A DNA stretch of 16,655 nt from IMG/VR virus record IMGVR_UViG_2619619134_000015, positions 1 through 16,655 of that record. One strand, 5' to 3'. A program made the translations under genes and the position numbers. Shown one piece after another: positions 1 through 16,167 of the stretch. The DNA comes from a virus (lineage: Duplodnaviria; Heunggongvirae; Uroviricota; Caudoviricetes). Position 1 is the stretch's first letter, and every line of letters begins with the position of its first letter. Under the pieces are notes generated by a model that was not told the origin of the DNA, searched no databases, and worked only from the letters and a program-made list of their open reading frames with translations.

Positions 1-1314
1 TTAACTTACTGATTTTAATAAGCCTCTGGTGTCACTTTGGTGACTATGGGGCATCATTGGGACATAATCTGTCAGCTTCTGATTCAGCATTGCGATCTGT
101 TCTGCATTGCTGTCAGTCATCCATGCTCCGTATACATTGAATACCATCTGGGCACTTGCATGGCCCATCTGGCTGGCAATGAAGCTTGGGTTTGCTCCGG
201 CAGATAATGACCAGCACGCATAAGTGTGTCGTGACTGGTATGCCTTTCGATGCCTGATCCCTGCACGCTTAATGGCTGTTTCCCATGAGTCACCTACAGA
301 ATCGACTTTGTAGACAAAACCTACCTGTTCGCTTTTTCTAACCACTTGAGGGTTAAACACGAAAGTACATTCATGGTTCACTGAACGTCCATATTCACGT
401 AGTTGCACCTTGATGTTGTACTGCTTACCCAGTCTTGTCATTTCAGCCTGATTTTTCAGGACACTGATAGCGGGCTGGATAAGGTGCACAACCCTGTTTG
501 TGCTTGCTTCAGTTTTCGGTAGAGTGAACTCACCAAGTTTCGTATAATTGCGCCTGATGGTAATTGTTCCTGCCTTCAGATCGATATCTTCCCAGGCCAG
601 GGAGACCAGTTCACCGTGACGCATTCCTGTGTACACAGCCAATGACCACAGGTTTTTCGTCTGCTGATGTCGGCAAGCATCTATCAGGCGAATAAATTCG
701 TCACGAGTTAGCGGATCTGGCTCTGCCCTGGCTCTTTTAAGAGGCTTAATTCCCTGGAAGGGATTTGCTTCTAAGTAACCGTGATCTGCAGCAAACTGAA
801 ACATTCCAGCGATTGTCGTCATGTAATAATTTACAGTAACGACGCTCCGTCCTTTTGCTGCTGCTTTGTTTTTCGTTGAATTCTGATACCCGGTAAGCAA
901 ATCTTTCCTGATATACAGCAATTCCTCTTTGGTTACCGATGACACCAGTCTACTGCCTCCAATTTTCGGAACCATCGTTCTTGCAACGGATTCATAGCGA
1001 TTGAATGCATTTGCAGAGATTTCCATTCGTTTCAGATCCAGCCACTTTTCTTCAAGTTCCTTCACCGTAATTTCTTTTTTACTTACCCCAAAAGCCTGAA
1101 GGTTGGGGGAGTCAGGGAACTGTGCAGCATAATCAAAGCTTCCTGTGCGGATGGCAAAACATACTGATGTCCGCAGTTCCCCGGCGATCTTCCTGTTCTT
1201 GGCAGTGTCAGGGACACCAAGATTTTCCCTGACACGTTTACCTTTAAAATTAAACCAGATGCGTAATGTGCCGCCGTGGTTTTCGACGCCTGTTGGATAT
1301 TTGACTTTATCCAT
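1..1314 (-). CDS. int: Phage integrase, tyrosine site-specific recombinase (437 aa)
   Basis: Complete ORF with the stop at the window edge and an ATG at 1314 preceded by GGAGG. The C-terminal catalytic region has the tyrosine recombinase pattern (RHRKAYQSRHTYA ... Y). It sits at the end of the leftward operon next to an excisionase-like gene. It is not the lambda Int sequence. Confidence 0.9.
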   Translation of the reverse strand: MDKVKYPTGVENHGGTLRIWFNFKGKRVRENLGVPDTAKNRKIAGELRTSVCFAIRTGSFDYAAQFPDSPNLQAFGVSKKEITVKELEEKWLDLKRMEISANAFNRYESVARTMVPKIGGSRLVSSVTKEELLYIRKDLLTGYQNSTKNKAAAKGRSVVTVNYYMTTIAGMFQFAADHGYLEANPFQGIKPLKRARAEPDPLTRDEFIRLIDACRHQQTKNLWSLAVYTGMRHGELVSLAWEDIDLKAGTITIRRNYTKLGEFTLPKTEASTNRVVHLIQPAISVLKNQAEMTRLGKQYNIKVQLREYGRSVNHECTFVFNPQVVRKSEQVGFVYKVDSVGDSWETAIKRAGIRHRKAYQSRHTYACWSLSAGANPSFIASQMGHASAQMVFNVYGAWMTDSNAEQIAMLNQKLTDYVPMMPHSHQSDTRGLLKSVS

Positions 1315-1369
1315 CGATACCTCCAGACGCCCAAGAGCGATACGAGCTTACATATTTCATGATATTAAA

Positions 1370-1606
1370 TCACCTGGGTTGTTTGTTTTTCATTGAGGCG
1401 ACCCAGGCATCTATTGCTTTTCTGTTATACATACATTCACTGGAAGGCTTTGGATTACCGTCTGGTGATACGTGAATATACTCTCTTCCAACCATCCAGC
1501 ATTCTTTCCGGGCCCGAAGAATTGTGCCTGGTTTGAGCCCGGTAATTGCGATAAGAACGCTTTCACAAACCCATTCATTGGGAGCCAGTTGAATCACATT
1601 GCCCAT
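1370..1606 (-). CDS. xis: Excisionase (Xis-like, 78 aa)
   Basis: Small ORF immediately upstream of int on the same strand, with an ATG at 1606 preceded by GAGGT. The motif RARKECWMVGREYIHV resembles lambda Xis VRRWVRECRIFPPPVKDGREYLFHESAV. Confidence 0.7.
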   Translation of the reverse strand: MGNVIQLAPNEWVCESVLIAITGLKPGTILRARKECWMVGREYIHVSPDGNPKPSSECMYNRKAIDAWVASMKNKQPR

Positions 1607-1614
1607 GTATTACC

Positions 1615-1761
1615 TCACACAACACTCAGCCCACGGCAGTGGCAACACACTTCAAACATTCGCTTCACAACTTCACGACAGTAGAAGCCGTCAACATCTC
1701 GCGTCAGGTCATAGCGATTGCCGTAACGCTGGTGGACCCATCGTTCAAATGCTTTATTCAT
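1615..1761 (-). CDS. Hypothetical small Cys-rich protein (48 aa; MNKAFERWVHQRYGNRYDLTRDVDGFYCREVVKRMFEVCCHCRGLSVV)
   Basis: Not in the supplied ORF track because it is under 60 aa. It has an ATG at 1759-1761 preceded by AAGGAAG at good spacing and packs tightly between the neighbouring genes. It contains a C..CCHC cluster. Confidence 0.4.
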   Translation of the reverse strand: MNKAFERWVHQRYGNRYDLTRDVDGFYCREVVKRMFEVCCHCRGLSVV

Positions 1762-1764
1762 TCT

Positions 1765-2007
1765 TTACTTCCTTTTTATGGCTCGTAATTTTTTCAGGTG
1801 CTTTTCCTGCTCAGTGTCCGCGAGAATTTTGCGGTACTCCTGGTGGTCAATATGTTCGAACAGGCAGTTTAACTCACCAATGCGTACCCGCCCGGATCGT
1901 CCGTCCATCCGTCGAAAGAACACTGAGTGCTCAGTGATGCGAGTAATCACCACGGGGTATCCGGCTCTGTCCGTGTATATCTGACCGCGTTGAATCAAAG
2001 CGAACAT
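1765..2007 (-). CDS. Hypothetical small prophage protein (80 aa from the first ATG; resembles small conserved proteins found near xis in enterobacterial prophages, possibly DUF4222-type)
   Basis: The ORF-track start at 2043 is a TTG. The first in-frame ATG is at 2005-2007, preceded by a GGGGA RBS. Family assignment is from memory and unverified. Confidence 0.5.
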   Translation of the reverse strand: MFALIQRGQIYTDRAGYPVVITRITEHSVFFRRMDGRSGRVRIGELNCLFEHIDHQEYRKILADTEQEKHLKKLRAIKRK

Positions 2008-2091
2008 GTGGTTATCCCCATCGACAAATCGAGAACACAACAAACGCTGCTGCGAATACCACCCCCAGAGTTACGATTGCATCAGGCCAGC

Positions 2092-3387
2092 TCATTGATT
2101 CACCTCCTGCCTGTCGTCCGGCATTCGCTCACTACAGCTTATCCAACCATCCGGAGTTACCGGAGAGTTGCCATTTACCAAGTCAGCTCGAACATATAGC
2201 GTGTCATCATGGTGCTGATTGTGGCTGCACCACGTTAATTCGCTTAACTCGCCATCTTCTGGCCATACTCCAGCTGTTTGCAGCCAGATATGGGCTGGCG
2301 CATCTTGGCAAGGTGTATTAACTGGCAACTTGTAAGTTTGGCTTACAGGTTGGCTACCCTGAAGCATGGCAGCGTGGCAGGCATCCTCTACGCCCTTAAC
2401 TGCATCTGCGCAGTAGTTATAGCGATTGCATTCCACTAACTTCTGCTTGAGATTTTCAATTGCTTGCGCGACATCAGCCTGTATTGGCGGAACGGCTGTC
2501 TGCTGCTCTCGAACGTCATTAGTCGCTATCGGTTCTGCTGCCAACTGACTGGCATATTTGTTAATGGTAACGATAAGCTCTTGCTCGGCCTCATCCAGAC
2601 AATCACCGATACCTCGCCTGTCACCGTCAAAATCATCGAAATCGGCACGAATCTTGGCAACCTCCTGGATTGCGGACAACACTTCACCAGGAATAAGCCG
2701 AGAGTTGCCCGATAGTGCATTCTGCTCCAGTGATGCTTTTACAAACCACGCTGCCTGAACTATAACGCCATGAATCCAGCGCAAATCAGCATCGCGATCT
2801 TTCTTTTTCATCTTTTCGCCACTTAAGGCCTTGCTTATGTGGCTGCGTACCAGGTCTTCATGTAATTCCTTCGCCTCCTCAATGGTGAAACCACCAGGCA
2901 GAAGAGCCGGAGTTACCGGAGAGCTGGTTGACGCTTCCGGGATTTCCCGAAAATTATTGGTTGACGAATTCTTGCTTTCCCGAAAGTTTCCGGACTGAAG
3001 CATGGCGGTGCGGCAGGCGTTCCATATTTCGGCAGCAATATCGCGCTCGCTATCGGTTAATTTGTACGTGGAAACATAGCCAGAGAGCATTTCTACGTTT
3101 TCCGGAGTTGCTTCTTCCGGCACTACCGGCGCTGGCGGGGCGGCAAATAGATATCCGCCAAAGTCAGGAAGCTCTCCAATGGCCTGTACGAACTTTTGTT
3201 TGCCTACGTCAACTCCTAATGGGTAATGAGCTATAATCTTTGCCACCGGCTCTGCTGCCAGTGATGCCAGCGCAATCCGTGCCAGCTCTTCCGCTTCTTC
3301 TGCTGGAAGCACAACGTTGCTACCCGGTCCGTATGTTTCGCGCCACTGCTTGATTGTCAGCAGTCGCCCTTTGGTAATAGTGATCAT
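2092..3387 (-). CDS. Hypothetical modular phage protein (431 aa), possibly with a C-terminal DUF551-like domain
   Basis: Long ORF with an ATG at 3387 that overlaps the upstream gene stop (ATGA). It contains a 17-bp perfect direct repeat (ccggagttaccggagag at 2151-2167 and 2907-2923) encoding SPVTP linkers. The DUF551 assignment is from memory and unverified. Confidence 0.6.
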   Translation of the reverse strand: MITITKGRLLTIKQWRETYGPGSNVVLPAEEAEELARIALASLAAEPVAKIIAHYPLGVDVGKQKFVQAIGELPDFGGYLFAAPPAPVVPEEATPENVEMLSGYVSTYKLTDSERDIAAEIWNACRTAMLQSGNFRESKNSSTNNFREIPEASTSSPVTPALLPGGFTIEEAKELHEDLVRSHISKALSGEKMKKKDRDADLRWIHGVIVQAAWFVKASLEQNALSGNSRLIPGEVLSAIQEVAKIRADFDDFDGDRRGIGDCLDEAEQELIVTINKYASQLAAEPIATNDVREQQTAVPPIQADVAQAIENLKQKLVECNRYNYCADAVKGVEDACHAAMLQGSQPVSQTYKLPVNTPCQDAPAHIWLQTAGVWPEDGELSELTWCSHNQHHDDTLYVRADLVNGNSPVTPDGWISCSERMPDDRQEVNQ

Positions 3388-3899
3388 GCCGCGTTTCCTT
3401 CTTTCTTATTAACAATCACACCGTCATATATTTCATTAAGGTGCCCTCTCAACTCCATGCGCCTTAATGCAGATAACATGTAATCGCATTCAACCTGCTT
3501 ATTCCCGGTAAATGGCTTATCGTCAGGATTACCCCAACAGCAATTACCCCTGGGCCATCCATGTACTTTCCGTACTCTTCCGTTAACAACGTGAAGTAAT
3601 CCCCAGCCGGGAGGTAAATCCTCAACTGAAATAATTTCCGGCTCACTAATAAAGAATCGCCAGTCGCCCATGCCAAGTGAGGGATTTTTACGGAAACGCT
3701 TTTTTCTATCTGCCAACAAGTCAGCACGAGAACACTTCGCCTCTATCAGGCATGATGCTGAATTTCTGAATCCCATAGCATCTGGCTGTTCTCCGGTACT
3801 GGTTACAGCAACAAAGCGGTCATGAAAGCAAACCTTGAACCCGTTGCGCTTAAGGAACTTGTACGCAATCTGACAGAGTTCGTGGTGTGTTAACGCCAT
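3384..3899 (-). CDS. Hypothetical protein (171 aa), possible PD-(D/E)XK nuclease-like fold
   Basis: Start chosen at the ATG at 3897-3899, preceded by AAGGAGAG; the ORF-track start at 3941 would overlap the upstream gene. The motif D..(n)..CLIEAKCSRADLL is reminiscent of a PD-(D/E)XK core. This is inference only. Confidence 0.55.
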   Translation of the reverse strand: MALTHHELCQIAYKFLKRNGFKVCFHDRFVAVTSTGEQPDAMGFRNSASCLIEAKCSRADLLADRKKRFRKNPSLGMGDWRFFISEPEIISVEDLPPGWGLLHVVNGRVRKVHGWPRGNCCWGNPDDKPFTGNKQVECDYMLSALRRMELRGHLNEIYDGVIVNKKEGNAA

Positions 3900-3900
3900 A

Positions 3901-4383
3901 TCACTCTCCTTTGATGCGAATGCCAGCGGCGCGGGAATCATTCCATCGCTTTACTTCTTCACGAATTACGTCAATGCATTCTTTCGAATCCATTAGGTAA
4001 TCTTCATCAAAAAGACGTTCCTGTTCGTTTTCTATCGCAACAATGATTGCTTCAACTAACTTTTGTTCCTGAGAATCACTTTCTAACTCTGCTATGCGCT
4101 TACTCCCATCCGAGATAACACCTTCGTAATATTCACGCTGTTCGTTGAGTTTTGATTTTGTCTCCTCAAGCTCAACGCGCAGCTTCCCTACCGTTAGCGC
4201 AATATCCTCGTTCTCCTGGTCGCGGCGTTTGATGTATTGCTGGTTTCTTTCCCGTTCATCCAGCAGTGCCAGCACAACCTGAGGTGTGACTTTCATACGA
4301 AATGCCAGCAATTTTTGAGGCGTTGCTACTGTTTCAATTGCTACTGCCGCCTCACGCAGTGCCTGAGAGTTAATTTCGCTCAC
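3901..4383 (-). CDS. Hypothetical coiled-coil protein (160 aa, E/K/R/Q-rich)
   Basis: GTG start at 4381-4383 preceded by GAGAGG, overlapping the stop of the upstream TraR-like gene (GTGA). Composition is strongly helical and charged. Function unknown. Confidence 0.55.
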   Translation of the reverse strand: MSEINSQALREAAVAIETVATPQKLLAFRMKVTPQVVLALLDERERNQQYIKRRDQENEDIALTVGKLRVELEETKSKLNEQREYYEGVISDGSKRIAELESDSQEQKLVEAIIVAIENEQERLFDEDYLMDSKECIDVIREEVKRWNDSRAAGIRIKGE

Positions 4384-4601
4384 TTCGAACCTCTCTGTTT
4401 ACTGATAAGTTCCAGATCCTCCTGGCAACTTGCACAAGTCCGACAACCCTGAACGGCCAAGCGTCTTCGTTCATCTATCGGATCGCCACACTCACAACAA
4501 TGAGTGGCAGATATAGCCTGGTGGTTCAGGCGGCGCATTTTTATTGCTGTGTTGCGCTGTAATTCTTCAATTTCTGATGCTGAATCAATGATGTCTGCCA
4601 T
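4380..4601 (-). CDS. TraR/DksA-family C4 zinc-finger protein (73 aa)
   Basis: The four-Cys pattern CCECGDPIDERRR...GCRTCASC is typical of phage and plasmid TraR/DksA C4-type zinc fingers. ATG at 4601. Confidence 0.75.
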   Translation of the reverse strand: MADIIDSASEIEELQRNTAIKMRRLNHQAISATHCCECGDPIDERRRLAVQGCRTCASCQEDLELISKQRGSK

Positions 4602-7317: not shown

Positions 7318-7450
7318 TTTTTGGGACTCCTGGCTGATTAAGTATGTCGATAAGGCGTTTCCATCCGTCACGTAATTTACGGGTGATTCGTTCAAGTAAA
7401 GATTCGGAAGGGCAGCCAGCAACAGGCCACCCTGCAATGGCATATTGCAT
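7286..7450 (-). CDS. cIII: CIII, FtsH/HflB inhibitor that stabilises CII (54 aa)
   Basis: The ATG at 7448-7450 begins MQYAIAGWPVAGCP..., the lambda CIII N-terminus. The ORF is 165 nt and is absent from the ORF track because it is under 60 aa. Confidence 0.8.
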   Translation of the reverse strand: MQYAIAGWPVAGCPSESLLERITRKLRDGWKRLIDILNQPGVPKNGSNTYGYPD

Positions 7451-7522
7451 GGTGTGCTCCTTATTTATACATAACGAAAAACGCCTCGAGTGAAGCGTTA
7501 TTGGTATGCGGTAACGCCGCGC

Positions 7523-10213: not shown

Positions 10214-10392
10214 GATGTTTTCCTCATGTAAAATGGCTTTGGTGGTGAGGTAGGTGGGAGACCCATTTCGACCTGTTTCGGCCTACTTCAATTCGGCAAT
10301 AGTCCCGCAGGCCTCGCCGCTTTACGTGCGACATATTCCCGTCCATGAACCCTTCACCACACCGCCAAACCCATCTCGTTTGGTATCTGTTT

Positions 10393-10426
10393 GCGCTTTG
10401 TCAGCGCCCCATCGAAGTTAAAGAGC
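10393..10426 (-). promoter_or_regulatory. nutL (boxA-like GCTCTTTAA plus boxB hairpin GCGCU-GACAA-AGCGC)
   Basis: Read on the minus strand: boxA-like GCTCTTTAA, a roughly 10-nt spacer, then a perfect 5-bp stem with a GACAA pentaloop. Confidence 0.55.
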
Positions 10427-10776
10427 CCGCCAATCTGTTCCGTTTGGCTTCCAACGTCCTGCTGATGGCGATAATAATGAACCAGTAGTTCGATATTATC
10501 AAGAACTATTGGTACGAATCGTTTATGATTTATTAACTCTACGAAATATGATTTTGATATATAAGGAAATTTATTTTTGTAAATGTTGCGGATGAAGGTT
10601 ATGCGGCAGGGATCAGAATTGCGTGGTTTAGCAAGTTGTATCTATTTATTTTTCAATAAATACAATTGGTTATGTGTTTTTAGATGGTGGATCGGGAGGC
10701 AAAGAAAACTGCTAGGTAGAAAACTGTGGGCACAAAAAAGCTAATGTGGAGTTGTTTGATCTTTTTAGGGGAATAA
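10427..10776 (-). promoter_or_regulatory. Presumed pL/OL region (promoter and operators not resolved)
   Basis: AT-rich non-coding segment between the terminator of the cI-linked module and nutL. Position only; no confident -35/-10 or operator assignment. Confidence 0.3.
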
Positions 10777-10803
10777 GAAAACCCGCCGAAGCGGGTGTTT
10801 TTG
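10777..10803. terminator. Bidirectional rho-independent terminator (AAAACCCGC-CGAA-GCGGGTGTTTTT)
   Basis: GC-rich 6-bp stem with a 4-nt loop flanked by an A-run on one side and a T-run on the other. It lies immediately after the stop of the 40-aa ORF, in the position of the lambda immunity-operon terminator. Confidence 0.7.
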
Positions 10804-10804
10804 G

Positions 10805-10927
10805 TTATGCTGCCATTGGAAGCTTTGATGCTAGCATTTCTGCTTTTCTCTGCTTCATTTCAGCAATAATCTGATTGATTCGATCCGCACTTTTAAGCAT
10901 ATCTTTGATATGTTCAGTTCTAGACAT
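10805..10927 (-). CDS. Hypothetical small protein (40 aa; MSRTEHIKDMLKSADRINQIIAEMKQRKAEMLASKLPMAA)
   Basis: Not in the ORF track because it is under 60 aa. ATG at 10925-10927 preceded by GGAGG at 6-nt spacing, 23 nt after the stop of the 120-aa gene. A TAA stop is followed directly by the terminator. Confidence 0.5.
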   Translation of the reverse strand: MSRTEHIKDMLKSADRINQIIAEMKQRKAEMLASKLPMAA

Positions 10928-10950
10928 GTTTATCCTCCGCTCTGTAAGTG

Positions 10951-11313
10951 TCAAAGACCCGATTTAGCACTCTTGAGTAGTTTTGATCCCTCAGAGCACA
11001 AATCAGGATTCTTTTCTCTTATGTTTTTGATTAAAATCTGTGCAAATATGATGATTTGCTTTAAGTTTAGTTCATTGATTGCATCAGCTTTTTGGTCAAG
11101 TTTCTCTAGCTCTGCATCTAATTCGTCAAGAGATGGGTTTGTTAACTCATGCAACCCTTCAATTCCAAGCTCTTCAAGACTGGTTGTAACAAATTCAATC
11201 AGACCGATTACAGCCTTTTTGACGCTATATATCTGCTTCTCCTCTGCGGAGGCCTCTGCACTTGGAACCAATGCTAAGGTTTTCAGATATTCATTCGTTT
11301 CATCTTGGGTCAC
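10951..11313 (-). CDS. Hypothetical acidic protein (120 aa) in the rexA/rexB position downstream of cI
   Basis: GTG start at 11311-11313 preceded by AAGGAG at 8-nt spacing. Same strand as cI and AT-rich. The overlapping plus-strand ORF 10910..11434 has antisense-like S/F-rich composition. Confidence 0.55.
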   Translation of the reverse strand: MTQDETNEYLKTLALVPSAEASAEEKQIYSVKKAVIGLIEFVTTSLEELGIEGLHELTNPSLDELDAELEKLDQKADAINELNLKQIIIFAQILIKNIREKNPDLCSEGSKLLKSAKSGL

Positions 11314-11479
11314 TAACTATACTCCTTATATATGCTCGATCAACCCATTTTGCAACCGCATTTACTGGGATAGAGCTTTTTTTACAATAGTCTTATGTGT
11401 ATATTTACAACGTTGTTTGTGGATAGGGTTATGATTTGTACCTAAAACCTGTCGCATTTTCGTCTCTATGCTATTGGTA

Positions 11480-12187
11480 TTAATAATTTCTCAGCCACTC
11501 CCTTGCCTCGATGTCATCCAGATGGCGAGATTGCTTCAGAATACCAGCCACATACTCCACCTTTGCTACTTGATGATAAGGCAACGTTATTGGTCTGTGG
11601 TCCTGGTTGATGCTTGTAAATTGGTATTCTCCATCTCTGTCATAGCCAAGAATCTTGATCATGTTGTGTCCTTCGATGGTTCTGACAAACACCTCATCAC
11701 CCGGGAATACTTTGGTGTTAGGCTCAATGAGTACATATTCTCCTGATTTTATTCTGGGCCACATGCTGTCTCCTTTCACACGAAGACCAAAGGCATCTGG
11801 ATCATCGCTATAAATCTTGAGCCACCCATCGCGTTCTTCGGTCATCTCGATGGCACCATCAACACCAAGAATTGCCTCACCAACCACGCGCACTAACCCT
11901 TTTTTTAATTTGCCAACAAATGAAAGAGTATCTTCATCATTCGCTCCATTTAACGAAGTGCCGTGCTGAAGCCAAACAACATCAACGTTTAGAAATTTCG
12001 CAAGCGCATTCATTTTTTCCTGACGCGGTAAAGACTCAGCATTAAACCATTTGCTAACGCCTTTGGACGAAAGAGAAAGGGCACGGGCTATAGCCATTCC
12101 CCTACCATGTTCATCAAGACCAGCTTCTTTACAGGCTTGCGCTAGCCGCTGGGCGAATTCTTTGCGCACTTTTTCATTCTGAACCAT
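11480..12187 (-). CDS. cI: CI-type prophage repressor (235 aa), HTH N-terminal domain plus LexA/S24-like self-cleaving C-terminal domain
   Basis: N-terminal HTH region (GMAIARALSLSSKGVSKWFNAE) and a C-terminal domain with the Ser (GDSMWP) and downstream Lys typical of the S24 peptidase fold. It is divergent from cro. It is not the lambda cI sequence. Confidence 0.85.
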   Translation of the reverse strand: MVQNEKVRKEFAQRLAQACKEAGLDEHGRGMAIARALSLSSKGVSKWFNAESLPRQEKMNALAKFLNVDVVWLQHGTSLNGANDEDTLSFVGKLKKGLVRVVGEAILGVDGAIEMTEERDGWLKIYSDDPDAFGLRVKGDSMWPRIKSGEYVLIEPNTKVFPGDEVFVRTIEGHNMIKILGYDRDGEYQFTSINQDHRPITLPYHQVAKVEYVAGILKQSRHLDDIEAREWLRNY

Positions 12188-12928: not shown

Positions 12929-13867
12929 ATGACAAATACAGCAAAAATACTCAACTTCTGCAGAGGTAACTTTGCCAAACAGGAGCGTAATGTGGCAGAT
13001 CTCGATGATGGTTACGCCAGACTATCAAATATGCTGATTGAGGCTTATTCAGGCGCAGATCTGACCAAGCGACAGTTTAAAGTGCTGCTTGCCATTCTGC
13101 GTAAAACCTATGGGTGGAATAAACCAATGGACAGAATCACCGATTCTCAACTTAGCGAGATTACAAAGTTACCTGTCAAACGGTGCAATGAAGCCAAGTT
13201 AGAACTCGTCAGAATGAATATTATCAAGCAGCAAGGCGGCATGTTTGGACCAAATAAAAACATCTCAGAATGGTGCATCCCTCAAAACGAGGGAGGTTCC
13301 CCTAAAATGAGGGACATCCCTCAAAACGAGGGAAAATCCCCTAAAACGAGGGATAAAACATCCCTCAAATTAGGGGATTGCTATCCCTCAAAACAGGGGG
13401 ACACAAAAGACACTATTACAAAAGAAAAAAGAAAAGATTATTCGTCCGAGAATTCTGGCGAATCCTCTGACCAGCCAGAAAACGATCTTTCTGTGGTTAA
13501 ACCGGATGCTGCAATTCAGAGCGGCAGCAAGTGGGGAACAGCAGAAGACCTGACCGCCGCAGAGTGGATGTTTGACATGGTGAAGACCATCGCACCATCA
13601 GCCAGAAAACCGAATTTTGCAGGGTGGGCTAACGATATCCGCCTGATGCGTGAACGTGACGGACGTAACCACCGCGACATGTGCGTGCTGTTCCGCTGGG
13701 CATGCCAGGACAACTTCTGGTCCGGTAACGTGCTAAGTCCGGCCAAACTCCGCGACAAGTGGACCCAGCTCGAAATCAACCGTAACAAGCAACAGGCTGG
13801 CGTGACAGCTGGAAAACCAAAACTCGACCTGACAAACACTGACTGGATTTACGGGGTGGATTTATGA
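12929..13867 (+). CDS. O: Replication initiator O (312 aa)
   Basis: MTNTAKILNF...TDWIYGVDL matches lambda O as remembered, except for a 13-aa insertion (GGSPKMRDIPQNE) that corresponds to two extra ori iterons. Confidence 0.95.
   Translation: MTNTAKILNFCRGNFAKQERNVADLDDGYARLSNMLIEAYSGADLTKRQFKVLLAILRKTYGWNKPMDRITDSQLSEITKLPVKRCNEAKLELVRMNIIKQQGGMFGPNKNISEWCIPQNEGGSPKMRDIPQNEGKSPKTRDKTSLKLGDCYPSKQGDTKDTITKEKRKDYSSENSGESSDQPENDLSVVKPDAAIQSGSKWGTAEDLTAAEWMFDMVKTIAPSARKPNFAGWANDIRLMRERDGRNHRDMCVLFRWACQDNFWSGNVLSPAKLRDKWTQLEINRNKQQAGVTAGKPKLDLTNTDWIYGVDL
13278..13401. repeat. ori-lambda-type iteron array within O: six roughly 18-bp iterons (TCCCTCAAAACGAGGGA-like) at about 20-bp periodicity
   Basis: Iterons at approximately 13278, 13298, 13317, 13337, 13361 and 13384, followed by an A-rich region (acaaaagacactattacaaaagaaaaaagaaaag). 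Confidence 0.85.
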
Positions 13868-14565
13868 AAAACATCGCCGCACAGATGGTTAACTTTGACC
13901 GTGAGCAGATGCGTCGGATCGCCAACAACATGCCGGAACAGTACGACGAAAAGCCGCAGGTACAACAGGTAGCGCAGATCATCAACGGTGTGTTCAGCCA
14001 GTTACTGGCAACTTTCCCGGCGAGTCTGGCTAACCGGGACCAGAACGAACTGAATGAAATCCGCCGCCAGTGGGTTCTGGCTTTCCGGGAAAACGGGATC
14101 ACCTCGATGGAACAGGTTAACGCAGGAATGCGCGTAGCCCGTCGGCAGAATCGACCATTTCTTCCATCACCCGGGCAGTTTGTTGCATGGTGCCGGGAAG
14201 AAGCATCCGTTATCGCCGGACTGCCAAACGTCAGCGAGCTGGTTGATATGGTTTACGAGTATTGCCGGAAGCGAGGCCTGTATCCGGATGCAGAGTCTTA
14301 TCCGTGGAAATCGAACGCGCACTACTGGCTGGTTACCAACCTGTACCAGAACATGCGGGCCAATGCGCTGACTGACGCGGAATTACGACGCAAGGCTGCC
14401 GATGAACTGACCTGTATGACAGCGCGAATTAACCGTGGTGAGACGATACCTGAACCAGTAAAACAACTTCCTGTCATGGGCGGCAGACCTCTAAATCGTG
14501 TTCAGGCGCTGGCGAAGATCGCAGAAATTAAAGCTAAGTTCGGACTGAAAGGAGCAAGTGTATGA
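13864..14565 (+). CDS. P: Replication protein P (DnaB helicase loader), 233 aa
   Basis: MKNIAAQMVNFDREQMRRIANNMPEQYDEKPQVQQVAQIINGVFSQLLATFPAS... matches lambda P as remembered. Its start overlaps the O stop (ATGA). Confidence 0.95.
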   Translation: MKNIAAQMVNFDREQMRRIANNMPEQYDEKPQVQQVAQIINGVFSQLLATFPASLANRDQNELNEIRRQWVLAFRENGITSMEQVNAGMRVARRQNRPFLPSPGQFVAWCREEASVIAGLPNVSELVDMVYEYCRKRGLYPDAESYPWKSNAHYWLVTNLYQNMRANALTDAELRRKAADELTCMTARINRGETIPEPVKQLPVMGGRPLNRVQALAKIAEIKAKFGLKGASV

Positions 14566-15240: not shown

Positions 15241-15643
15241 CGCCATAGACGCAATACTCTCACTTCCCATCGACGACAAGTCACCCCACGAAGTCCACCT
15301 TAAAGAACCCAAACGCAGCAAAGCGCAGAATGACCGTATGTGGCCGATGCTGAACGATGTTTCGCGTCAGGTGCTATGGCATGGTCAACGGCTGGCACCG
15401 GAAGACTGGAAAGACCTGTTCACTGCCCTGTGGCTTAAGACCAAAAAACTGGAGCAACGAAGTGTTCCTGGTATCGACGGTGGCGTTGTCATGCTTGGCG
15501 TGCGTACCAGCAAAATGCGAAAGGCCAGCATGACTGAGCTTATCGAAATCATGTTCTGGTTCGGCTCAGAGCGCAACGTGCGGTGGAGTGATGACTCCCG
15601 GCGAGAGTATGAATGGTCACAACGAAAAGGGAAGGCTGCATGA
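15197..15643 (+). CDS. ninB: NinB-like recombination protein (148 aa)
   Basis: Clear but diverged similarity to lambda NinB (QNDRMWPMLNDVSRQVLWHGQRL..., VRWSD..., C-terminal GKAA). Start could be the ATG at 15197 or at 15212. Confidence 0.8.
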   Translation: MKQIYMLRNEAIRNNAIDAILSLPIDDKSPHEVHLKEPKRSKAQNDRMWPMLNDVSRQVLWHGQRLAPEDWKDLFTALWLKTKKLEQRSVPGIDGGVVMLGVRTSKMRKASMTELIEIMFWFGSERNVRWSDDSRREYEWSQRKGKAA

Positions 15644-16167
15644 CTATCAAATCAAATACACCAGCGTCAGATAGGTATCGGCTTATTGAGGATTATCTGT
15701 ATTTAGACGGAGATACAGTCAGATACAAAAAGGACTCGCTAAAACACCCCAACCACAGCCACCGGGCCGGAGATGAAATTAAAACATCGATAAATGGATC
15801 TGGGTATAGACAGGTGTGTTTTGCAGGCATTCAGATGTTTGTTCACGTAGTTGTTTTTGCGCTGCACAACAAAAGAATGCCATTGAAAAATATTGACCAT
15901 ATTAACGGAAACAGGCTGGACAATTCCCCAAAAAATCTTAGGGAGGCAAACCGGATAGCAAACAGCCGAAATCAGAAAACTAAGTGCAATAGCCGTTCTG
16001 GAATAAAAAATGTTTTATGGAACAAGCAAAAAAATAAATGGGCCGTTCAAGTGCGCACAGATTTTGGCCGGTTGCATTTTGGGTTCTATGAAGATCTTGA
16101 GCTTGCTGGTTTGGTTGCCAGTGAGGCTATCAACAAATATCACGGACAATATGCGAGGGTTGAATGA
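15640..16167 (+). CDS. HNH homing-type endonuclease with a C-terminal AP2-like DNA-binding domain (175 aa)
   Basis: HNH core (HNKRMPLKNIDHINGNRLDNSPKNLREANRIANSRN) followed by a segment typical of AP2-like domains in phage HNH endonucleases (SGIKNVLWNKQKNKWAVQV...FGFYEDLELA). Its ATG overlaps the ninB stop (ATGA) and its stop overlaps the next gene start (ATGA). Confidence 0.75.
   Translation: MTIKSNTPASDRYRLIEDYLYLDGDTVRYKKDSLKHPNHSHRAGDEIKTSINGSGYRQVCFAGIQMFVHVVVFALHNKRMPLKNIDHINGNRLDNSPKNLREANRIANSRNQKTKCNSRSGIKNVLWNKQKNKWAVQVRTDFGRLHFGFYEDLELAGLVASEAINKYHGQYARVE

Follow-up and report, generated by a model that had tools for sequence, protein, structure and literature searches.

The feature embedded in the O gene described here is almost certainly the theta-replication origin of a lambdoid prophage of the 933W (Stx-phage) type. 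The window, by which we mean the whole stretch of 16,655 nucleotides that was analysed, comprises the left arm and the early region of a mosaic lambdoid prophage, with genes in the order int, Ea22-region genes, exo, bet, gam, kil/cIII, N, cI, cro, cII, O, P, ren and ninB. Its origin is of the lambda O/P type: the iterons lie inside O, an AT-rich tract lies to their right and P follows directly downstream. The elements are listed below, with the designations of the 933W record in brackets.

12929-13867, plus strand: O gene, encoding the 312-aa replication initiator, with the origin inside it (ORF call, Pfam and PHROG).
13276-13314, plus strand: 39-bp segment missing in lambda, encoding 13 extra O residues.
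13278-13294, plus strand: iteron 1'' ('ori iteron 1'), extra, TCCCTCAAAACGAGGGA, the same as lambda iteron 1.
13298-13314, plus strand: iteron 1' ('ori iteron 2'), extra, TCCCCTAAAATGAGGGA, with C changed to T relative to lambda iteron 2.
13317-13333, plus strand: iteron 1 ('ori iteron 3'), identical to lambda iteron 1.
13337-13353, plus strand: iteron 2 ('ori iteron 4'), identical to lambda iteron 2.
13361-13377, plus strand: iteron 3 ('ori iteron 5'), TCCCTCAAATTAGGGGA, with one A/G difference from lambda iteron 3.
13384-13400, plus strand: iteron 4 ('ori iteron 6'), identical to lambda iteron 4 and with one mismatch to the pattern TCCCYYAAAWYRRGGGA.
13401-13443, plus strand: AT-rich, purine-skewed tract adjoining the iterons, the presumed unwinding element, the same as in lambda and 933W.
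13864-14565, plus strand: P gene, encoding the helicase-loader partner of O (Pfam PF06992, Phage_lambda_P, E 2e-61).

Residues 22-115 of the O protein match the Pfam family PF04492 (Phage_rep_O, E 1e-35) and its full length matches PHROG 277, 'replication initiation O-like' (E 1e-155). A sequence search for a solved structure of O found none. The O and P reading frames overlap by 4 nt (13864-13867), and the P protein is 97% identical to that of lambda and 100% identical to that of 933W.

Six direct copies of a dyad-symmetric 17-nt element occupy positions 13278-13400, in frame within the O reading frame, which continues through the array uninterrupted over its 312 codons. Their start-to-start spacings are 20, 19, 20, 24 and 23 bp, about two helical turns. 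Iterons 1'', 1 and 3, as read from the sequence, carry perfect 6-bp inverted arms, either TCCCTC/GAGGGA or a near variant. When the degenerate pattern TCCCYYAAAWYRRGGGA was searched over the 16,655-bp window with at most one mismatch allowed, it matched the six iterons and no other site, a seventh match being the reverse strand of site 5. The array is not due to chance, since the same pattern had no match in 200 dinucleotide-preserving shuffles. Tandem Repeats Finder reports the first four iterons (13276-13353) as 2.0 copies of a 39-nt period with 89% matches. The first-pass annotation had placed an origin with six iterons at 13278-13401 within a lambda-like O gene, and both the pattern search and the alignments described below bear out the number and the range.

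To the right of the array, the 40-nt bin at 13400-13439 has a GC content of 0.25 and an AT skew of 0.67 (A over T). That such a tract serves as the unwinding element is known from established work on lambda, as summarised in Kozlowska et al. 2020 (PMC7466680). A repeat finder run at seed 6 detected no inverted repeat on the right of the tract.

The lambda record NC_001416 (O at 38686-39585) has the same arrangement, with iterons and AT-rich tract in the middle of O and P downstream, and it annotates four ori iterons inside O. This is the number given for lambda in the first-pass annotation, and alignment with the lambda O gene and origin agrees with it. Four of the six iterons of the window correspond one-to-one to those of lambda, three being identical and one differing by a single nucleotide, and the AT-rich tract is identical. 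The two differ in that lambda has four iterons and an O protein of 299 aa, whereas the window has six iterons and an O protein of 312 aa. The whole of this difference lies in one place. [quoted passage not shown] The proposal that the additional pair of iterons encodes a 13-aa insertion in O is thus confirmed. The single-nucleotide difference is in iteron 3, where the window and 933W read AAATTAGGGGA and lambda reads AAATTGGGGGA; the A in place of G is a variant specific to the Stx phages, and it is also remarked upon in the 2020 study (PMC7466680).

The segment at 13276-13314 is identical to the adjoining segment at 13315-13353 at 35 of 39 positions. This similarity identifies it as the product of an in-frame tandem duplication of the iteron 1 plus iteron 2 pair, the copies of which have since diverged. 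Removal of 13276-13314 from O leaves 23 mismatches to lambda O in 900 nt (97.4% identity), while the other deletion registers that were tried leave 24 or 27. The leftmost, promoter-proximal pair is therefore the best candidate for the extra one. The peptide named in the first-pass annotation, GGSPKMRDIPQNE, and that chosen by the aligner, IPQNEGGSPKMRD, are equivalent registers of one and the same indel, because IPQNEG is repeated.

At the protein level the insertion corresponds to O residues 117-129, directly after the Pfam Phage_rep_O domain. The segment made up of residues 116-189 lies between the N- and C-terminal homology blocks, and 84% of its residues are polar, charged, Gly or Pro. Judging by the domain boundaries and this composition, the extra pair adds its 13 residues to a hydrophilic linker just past the N-terminal DNA-binding domain. 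Iteron-containing plasmid origins, such as the gamma ori of R6K, share with the lambdoid origins a general plan in which binding sites for the initiator are repeated in tandem beside an AT-rich element that unwinds. Their initiators belong to a family unrelated to lambdoid O. In the lambdoid phages the iterons lie inside the coding sequence of the initiator, so that any change in the number of repeats alters the protein as well. The R6K gamma ori served as helper origin in the experiments of PMC7466680 that are described below.

The closest known systems are the origins and O genes of the phages 933W, P27, VT1-Sakai, AU5Stx1 and Stx2 converting phage I. Over 321 nt, including the iterons, the AT-rich tract and the flanks, the origin region is 100% identical to that of 933W, and the O gene has 99.7% nucleotide identity to O of 933W and of dozens of other Stx-converting phages. 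The features that set the 933W/P27 variant apart are all found in the window, namely promoter-proximal extra iterons 1'' and 1', 13 additional O residues and the A in iteron 3. The gene order cI-cro-cII-O-P-ren is likewise shared with 933W. The window differs from 933W in its mosaic left arm, which has a phiP27-like integrase and other Ea22-region genes. The six-iteron origin as such is already known. The 933W record (AF125520; NC_000924) lists 'ori iteron 1' through 'ori iteron 6' as binding sites for O, the AU5Stx1 record annotates six iterons with notes on which of them equal those of lambda, and the VT1-Sakai record has six O-binding features. In 2020 the origin was studied by biochemical and genetic means (PMC7466680). 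PMC8044961 makes no mention of iterons.

The O gene departs from that of 933W at three nucleotides, two of which cause the substitutions G11C and E17K while the third is silent. We considered and rejected the notion that these substitutions define a new O allele, as both variants occur naturally, in O proteins of 299 aa as well as of 312 aa, and the exact 312-aa protein is common, being indexed in 271 blocks of a public assembly collection.

No stx gene is present within the window, which ends in the nin region, before the late region. For this reason it cannot be called an Stx phage, the stx genes of which lie downstream of the Q antiterminator. Nor is a six-iteron origin by itself a sign of stx, since it is also found in prophages of many E. 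coli genomes.

The distribution of the array was followed with a 44-nt query spanning a junction found in the six-iteron form alone. Perfect matches to it occur in 72 phage records, almost all named as Stx-converting, as well as in 362 of the 5426 complete E. coli genomes, where one genome may have as many as four. Assemblies can go wrong at short tandem repeats, and the first-pass annotation had itself named misassembly of the repeats as a concern. The true number of iterons would then be four, and a collapsed or expanded repeat would have produced six. The chance that the array is such an assembly or sequencing artefact is negligible. The two 39-nt copies differ at 4 positions and are not confusable, the reading frame is preserved, and the junction recurs in the independent phage records and E. 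coli genomes just mentioned, as does the protein in its 271 assembly blocks. On the strength of these independent occurrences, misassembly was rejected.

What the extra pair does has been approached by Kozlowska and colleagues, whose 2020 paper (PMC7466680) reports that the origins of Stx phages have six iterons versus four in lambda, with 13 additional residues in O. The comparison of four- and six-iteron origins suggested in the first-pass annotation is essentially contained in that work. According to their DMS footprints on four- and six-iteron templates, strong binding is limited to the four iterons nearest the AT-rich tract, and the outcome is alike for the O proteins of lambda, P27 and 933W. 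Iterons 1' and 1'' are reported as weakly bound, 1'' being very weakly protected. The O proteins of Stx phages bind iterons more weakly than lambda O does, according to the same source. Synonymous mutations that disrupt iteron 1 or 1' abolished transformation by a P27-derived plasmid (Table 2 of PMC7466680). The Stx phages are also described there as differing from lambda in their dependence on DnaA and on transcriptional activation, a lower dependence on host factors being reported for them. The authors propose that the additional sites increase the concentration of O locally or make the O-some more stable. They also propose that the 13 residues form a 'space barrier' resulting in a less packed O-some. 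The secondary structure that they predict suggests that the extra segment of O makes no DNA contact.

The first-pass annotation had suggested that iteron number affects O-some assembly and may change origin specificity. The first part finds support in PMC7466680, insofar as O-some formation is described there as different in the Stx phages. The second part, a change of specificity, is not supported: the iterons agree in sequence, and in the same source lambda O binds the same sites as Stx-phage O.

When these results are transferred to the window, they point to the following scheme, the outline of which is drawn from work on lambda and on Stx phages. Dimers of O would bind the dyad-symmetric iterons through their N-terminal domain and build a bent O-some, which would destabilise the neighbouring AT-rich tract. 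The C-terminal domain of O would recruit P bound to the host DnaB helicase, and transcription from pR through the region would activate the origin. The in-frame 39-bp duplication would have added two promoter-proximal iterons while lengthening the interdomain linker of O by 13 residues. Judging from the published experiments, the core O-some would be made up of the four iterons closest to the AT-rich tract, and the extra ones would be weakly occupied; plasmid replication would nevertheless require at least iteron 1'. This is probably because the extra sites increase the O concentration locally, or because they stabilise an O-some built from a weaker-binding O protein. The anatomy of the origin, its identity to 933W and its exact difference from lambda were established on the sequence of the window itself, whereas how O binds, how the tract unwinds and what the extra pair does are attributed to it by analogy and from the literature. 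O-iteron binding and firing in vivo are reported in PMC7466680 for the sequence-identical origins of 933W and P27, and would presumably extend to the present origin, the O allele of which differs from that of 933W by G11C and E17K.

A different emphasis places the change mainly in the protein, so that the 13-residue linker would alter how the O-some is packed and how far initiation depends on host factors and transcriptional activation. The 'space barrier' proposal of the authors of PMC7466680 speaks for this reading, as does the position of the insertion, which separates the DNA-binding domain from the remainder of the protein. It is nevertheless rather doubtful as the principal explanation. 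In the experiments of PMC7466680, plasmid replication was lost when the DNA sites were changed and the protein sequence was kept, which indicates that the DNA sites matter in their own right, and the extra segment is predicted there to lie clear of the DNA. An effect of the linker is in any case compatible with a role of the extra sites in supporting the O-some and does not exclude it.

It could also be supposed that the extra pair is the neutral remnant of slippage or unequal crossing-over, carried in frame in a tolerant linker and without any role in initiation. The pair is indeed a simple 39-bp tandem copy situated in a hydrophilic linker, its sites are weakly footprinted according to PMC7466680, and lambda tolerates the loss of iterons: Moore et al. 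1981, as cited in PMC7466680, found that lambda grows normally with three. Four- and six-iteron forms, furthermore, coexist with O genes that are otherwise near-identical and that share N-terminal polymorphisms. Against this stands the synonymous mutation of iteron 1' that abolished transformation by the P27-derived plasmid (PMC7466680, Table 2). Among 24 six-iteron loci the 34 nt of the extra iteron cores contain a single variant, in one locus, but these loci are too few and too close in descent to demonstrate constraint. Over 190 nt the same 24 loci have six variable sites, too few for any conclusion on selective constraint. Given the plasmid result, neutrality is an unlikely account, and we favour a contribution of the extra sites to the O-some. 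Since lambda is normal with three iterons, the need for the extra ones may depend on context.

Iteron number varies among related prophages. Among the IMG/VR matches listed for the lambda-type iteron pair, at least 94 arrays have four iterons and at least 18 have six, with a few arrays of three or five; the array of the window is the commonest six-iteron sequence type among these matches. It has been considered whether the 39-bp indel is a recurrently lost polymorphism, by which prophages switch between six and four iterons and so tune the vigour of replication or its dependence on host factors. Recombination between the identical 19-bp CATCCCTCAAAACGAGGGA repeats would, on such a reading, restore exactly the lambda-like four-iteron origin. 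The occurrence of C11 and K17 in both the 299-aa and the 312-aa proteins is compatible with recurrent loss, but ordinary mosaic recombination explains it equally well. We regard this switch as very improbable. The diagnostic differences in the extra pair are shared by every six-iteron allele seen, and this indicates a single ancient gain.

The few odd arrays in IMG/VR are of several kinds. One with five iterons (L114) carries iteron 3 twice, through a 23-nt duplication that would put O out of frame. Another with five iterons (L020) has unrelated sequence on the left of iteron 1', and a third (L113), scored as five, is flanked directly on the left by what looks like the tail of one more iteron, missed by the pattern. 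Two have three iterons followed by unrelated sequence, the iterons of one of them (L098) being of the six-iteron type (the other is L034). In five contigs (L011, L012, L048, L105 and L121) the A-runs of the AT-rich tract (AAAAGAAAAAAGAAAAG, window 13420-13437) vary in length by 1 nt or 7 nt, and O is truncated to 174-194 aa in four of them (L011, L012, L105 and L121). Such length changes and truncated O genes could reflect homopolymer sequencing errors or defective prophages.

In species-representative genomes, the lambda iteron pair gave 24 matches (L123-L146), all with four iterons. They are located mostly on short or low-coverage contigs assigned to unrelated taxa, Bradyrhizobium, Pseudoxanthomonas, Lactobacillus and Mycobacterium among others; in Shewanella and Pseudomonas assemblies there are matching contigs about 48.4-48.5 kb long. 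Most of these look like contamination with lambda DNA and not like true prophages. The matches in Siccibacter and Citrobacter may be genuine.

Several observations were made elsewhere in the window. At its mosaic left end (1-4400), the integrase gene (1-1314, minus strand) encodes Arm-DNA-bind_2 and Phage_integrase domains. The integrase and xis region resembles that of phiP27 (94%) and PhiR49_2 (99%), not that of 933W. A 431-aa ORF (2092-3387) and its neighbours are genes of the Ea22/DUF551 type that also match phage P7. The Rfam family Lambda_thermo, the thermoregulator of the cIII mRNA, matches at 7405-7463 on the minus strand. The match scores 88.5 bits, the gathering score being 50, and lies where the cIII/kil region begins, which is the place expected in the early-left operon of a lambdoid phage.

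The segment between N and cI (10214-11480) contains two overlapping ORFs, one on the plus strand (10910-11434, 174 aa) and one on the minus strand (10951-11313, 120 aa). Pfam has no match for either of them, and in PHROG the minus-strand ORF alone has a weak match, to a family of unknown function. This minus-strand ORF is also called by gene callers in related assemblies. In 933W the segment between N and cI includes stk.

The minus strand has a sigma-70-like promoter, TTGAGT-17-CATAAT, where O begins (12954-12926). Some 55-80 nt downstream of it, inside the 3' end of cII, lies a strong hairpin with a T-run resembling an intrinsic terminator (12872-12845, minus strand). The two have the position and layout of the lambda pO promoter and the oop antisense RNA. 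An Rfam search had no match at this promoter and hairpin (12954-12845).

Beyond ninB there is an ORF for a 184-aa HNH endonuclease (15613-16167, plus strand; PHROG 99, E 7e-43). In 933W and AU5Stx1, dam directly follows ninB, without an HNH gene between them, whereas several assemblies with the identical O protein also have the HNH gene between ninB and dam. Because it is absent from this position in some phages and present in others, the HNH gene looks like a mobile insertion in the nin region.

As one more prophage with a six-iteron origin, the window adds nothing new to what is known of this class. The wider importance of these origins comes from the toxin genes carried by Stx prophages. 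According to PMC7466680, replication of an Stx prophage after induction drives the dosage and the expression of the Shiga-toxin genes, and this is why the differences between such origins and that of lambda are of medical interest.
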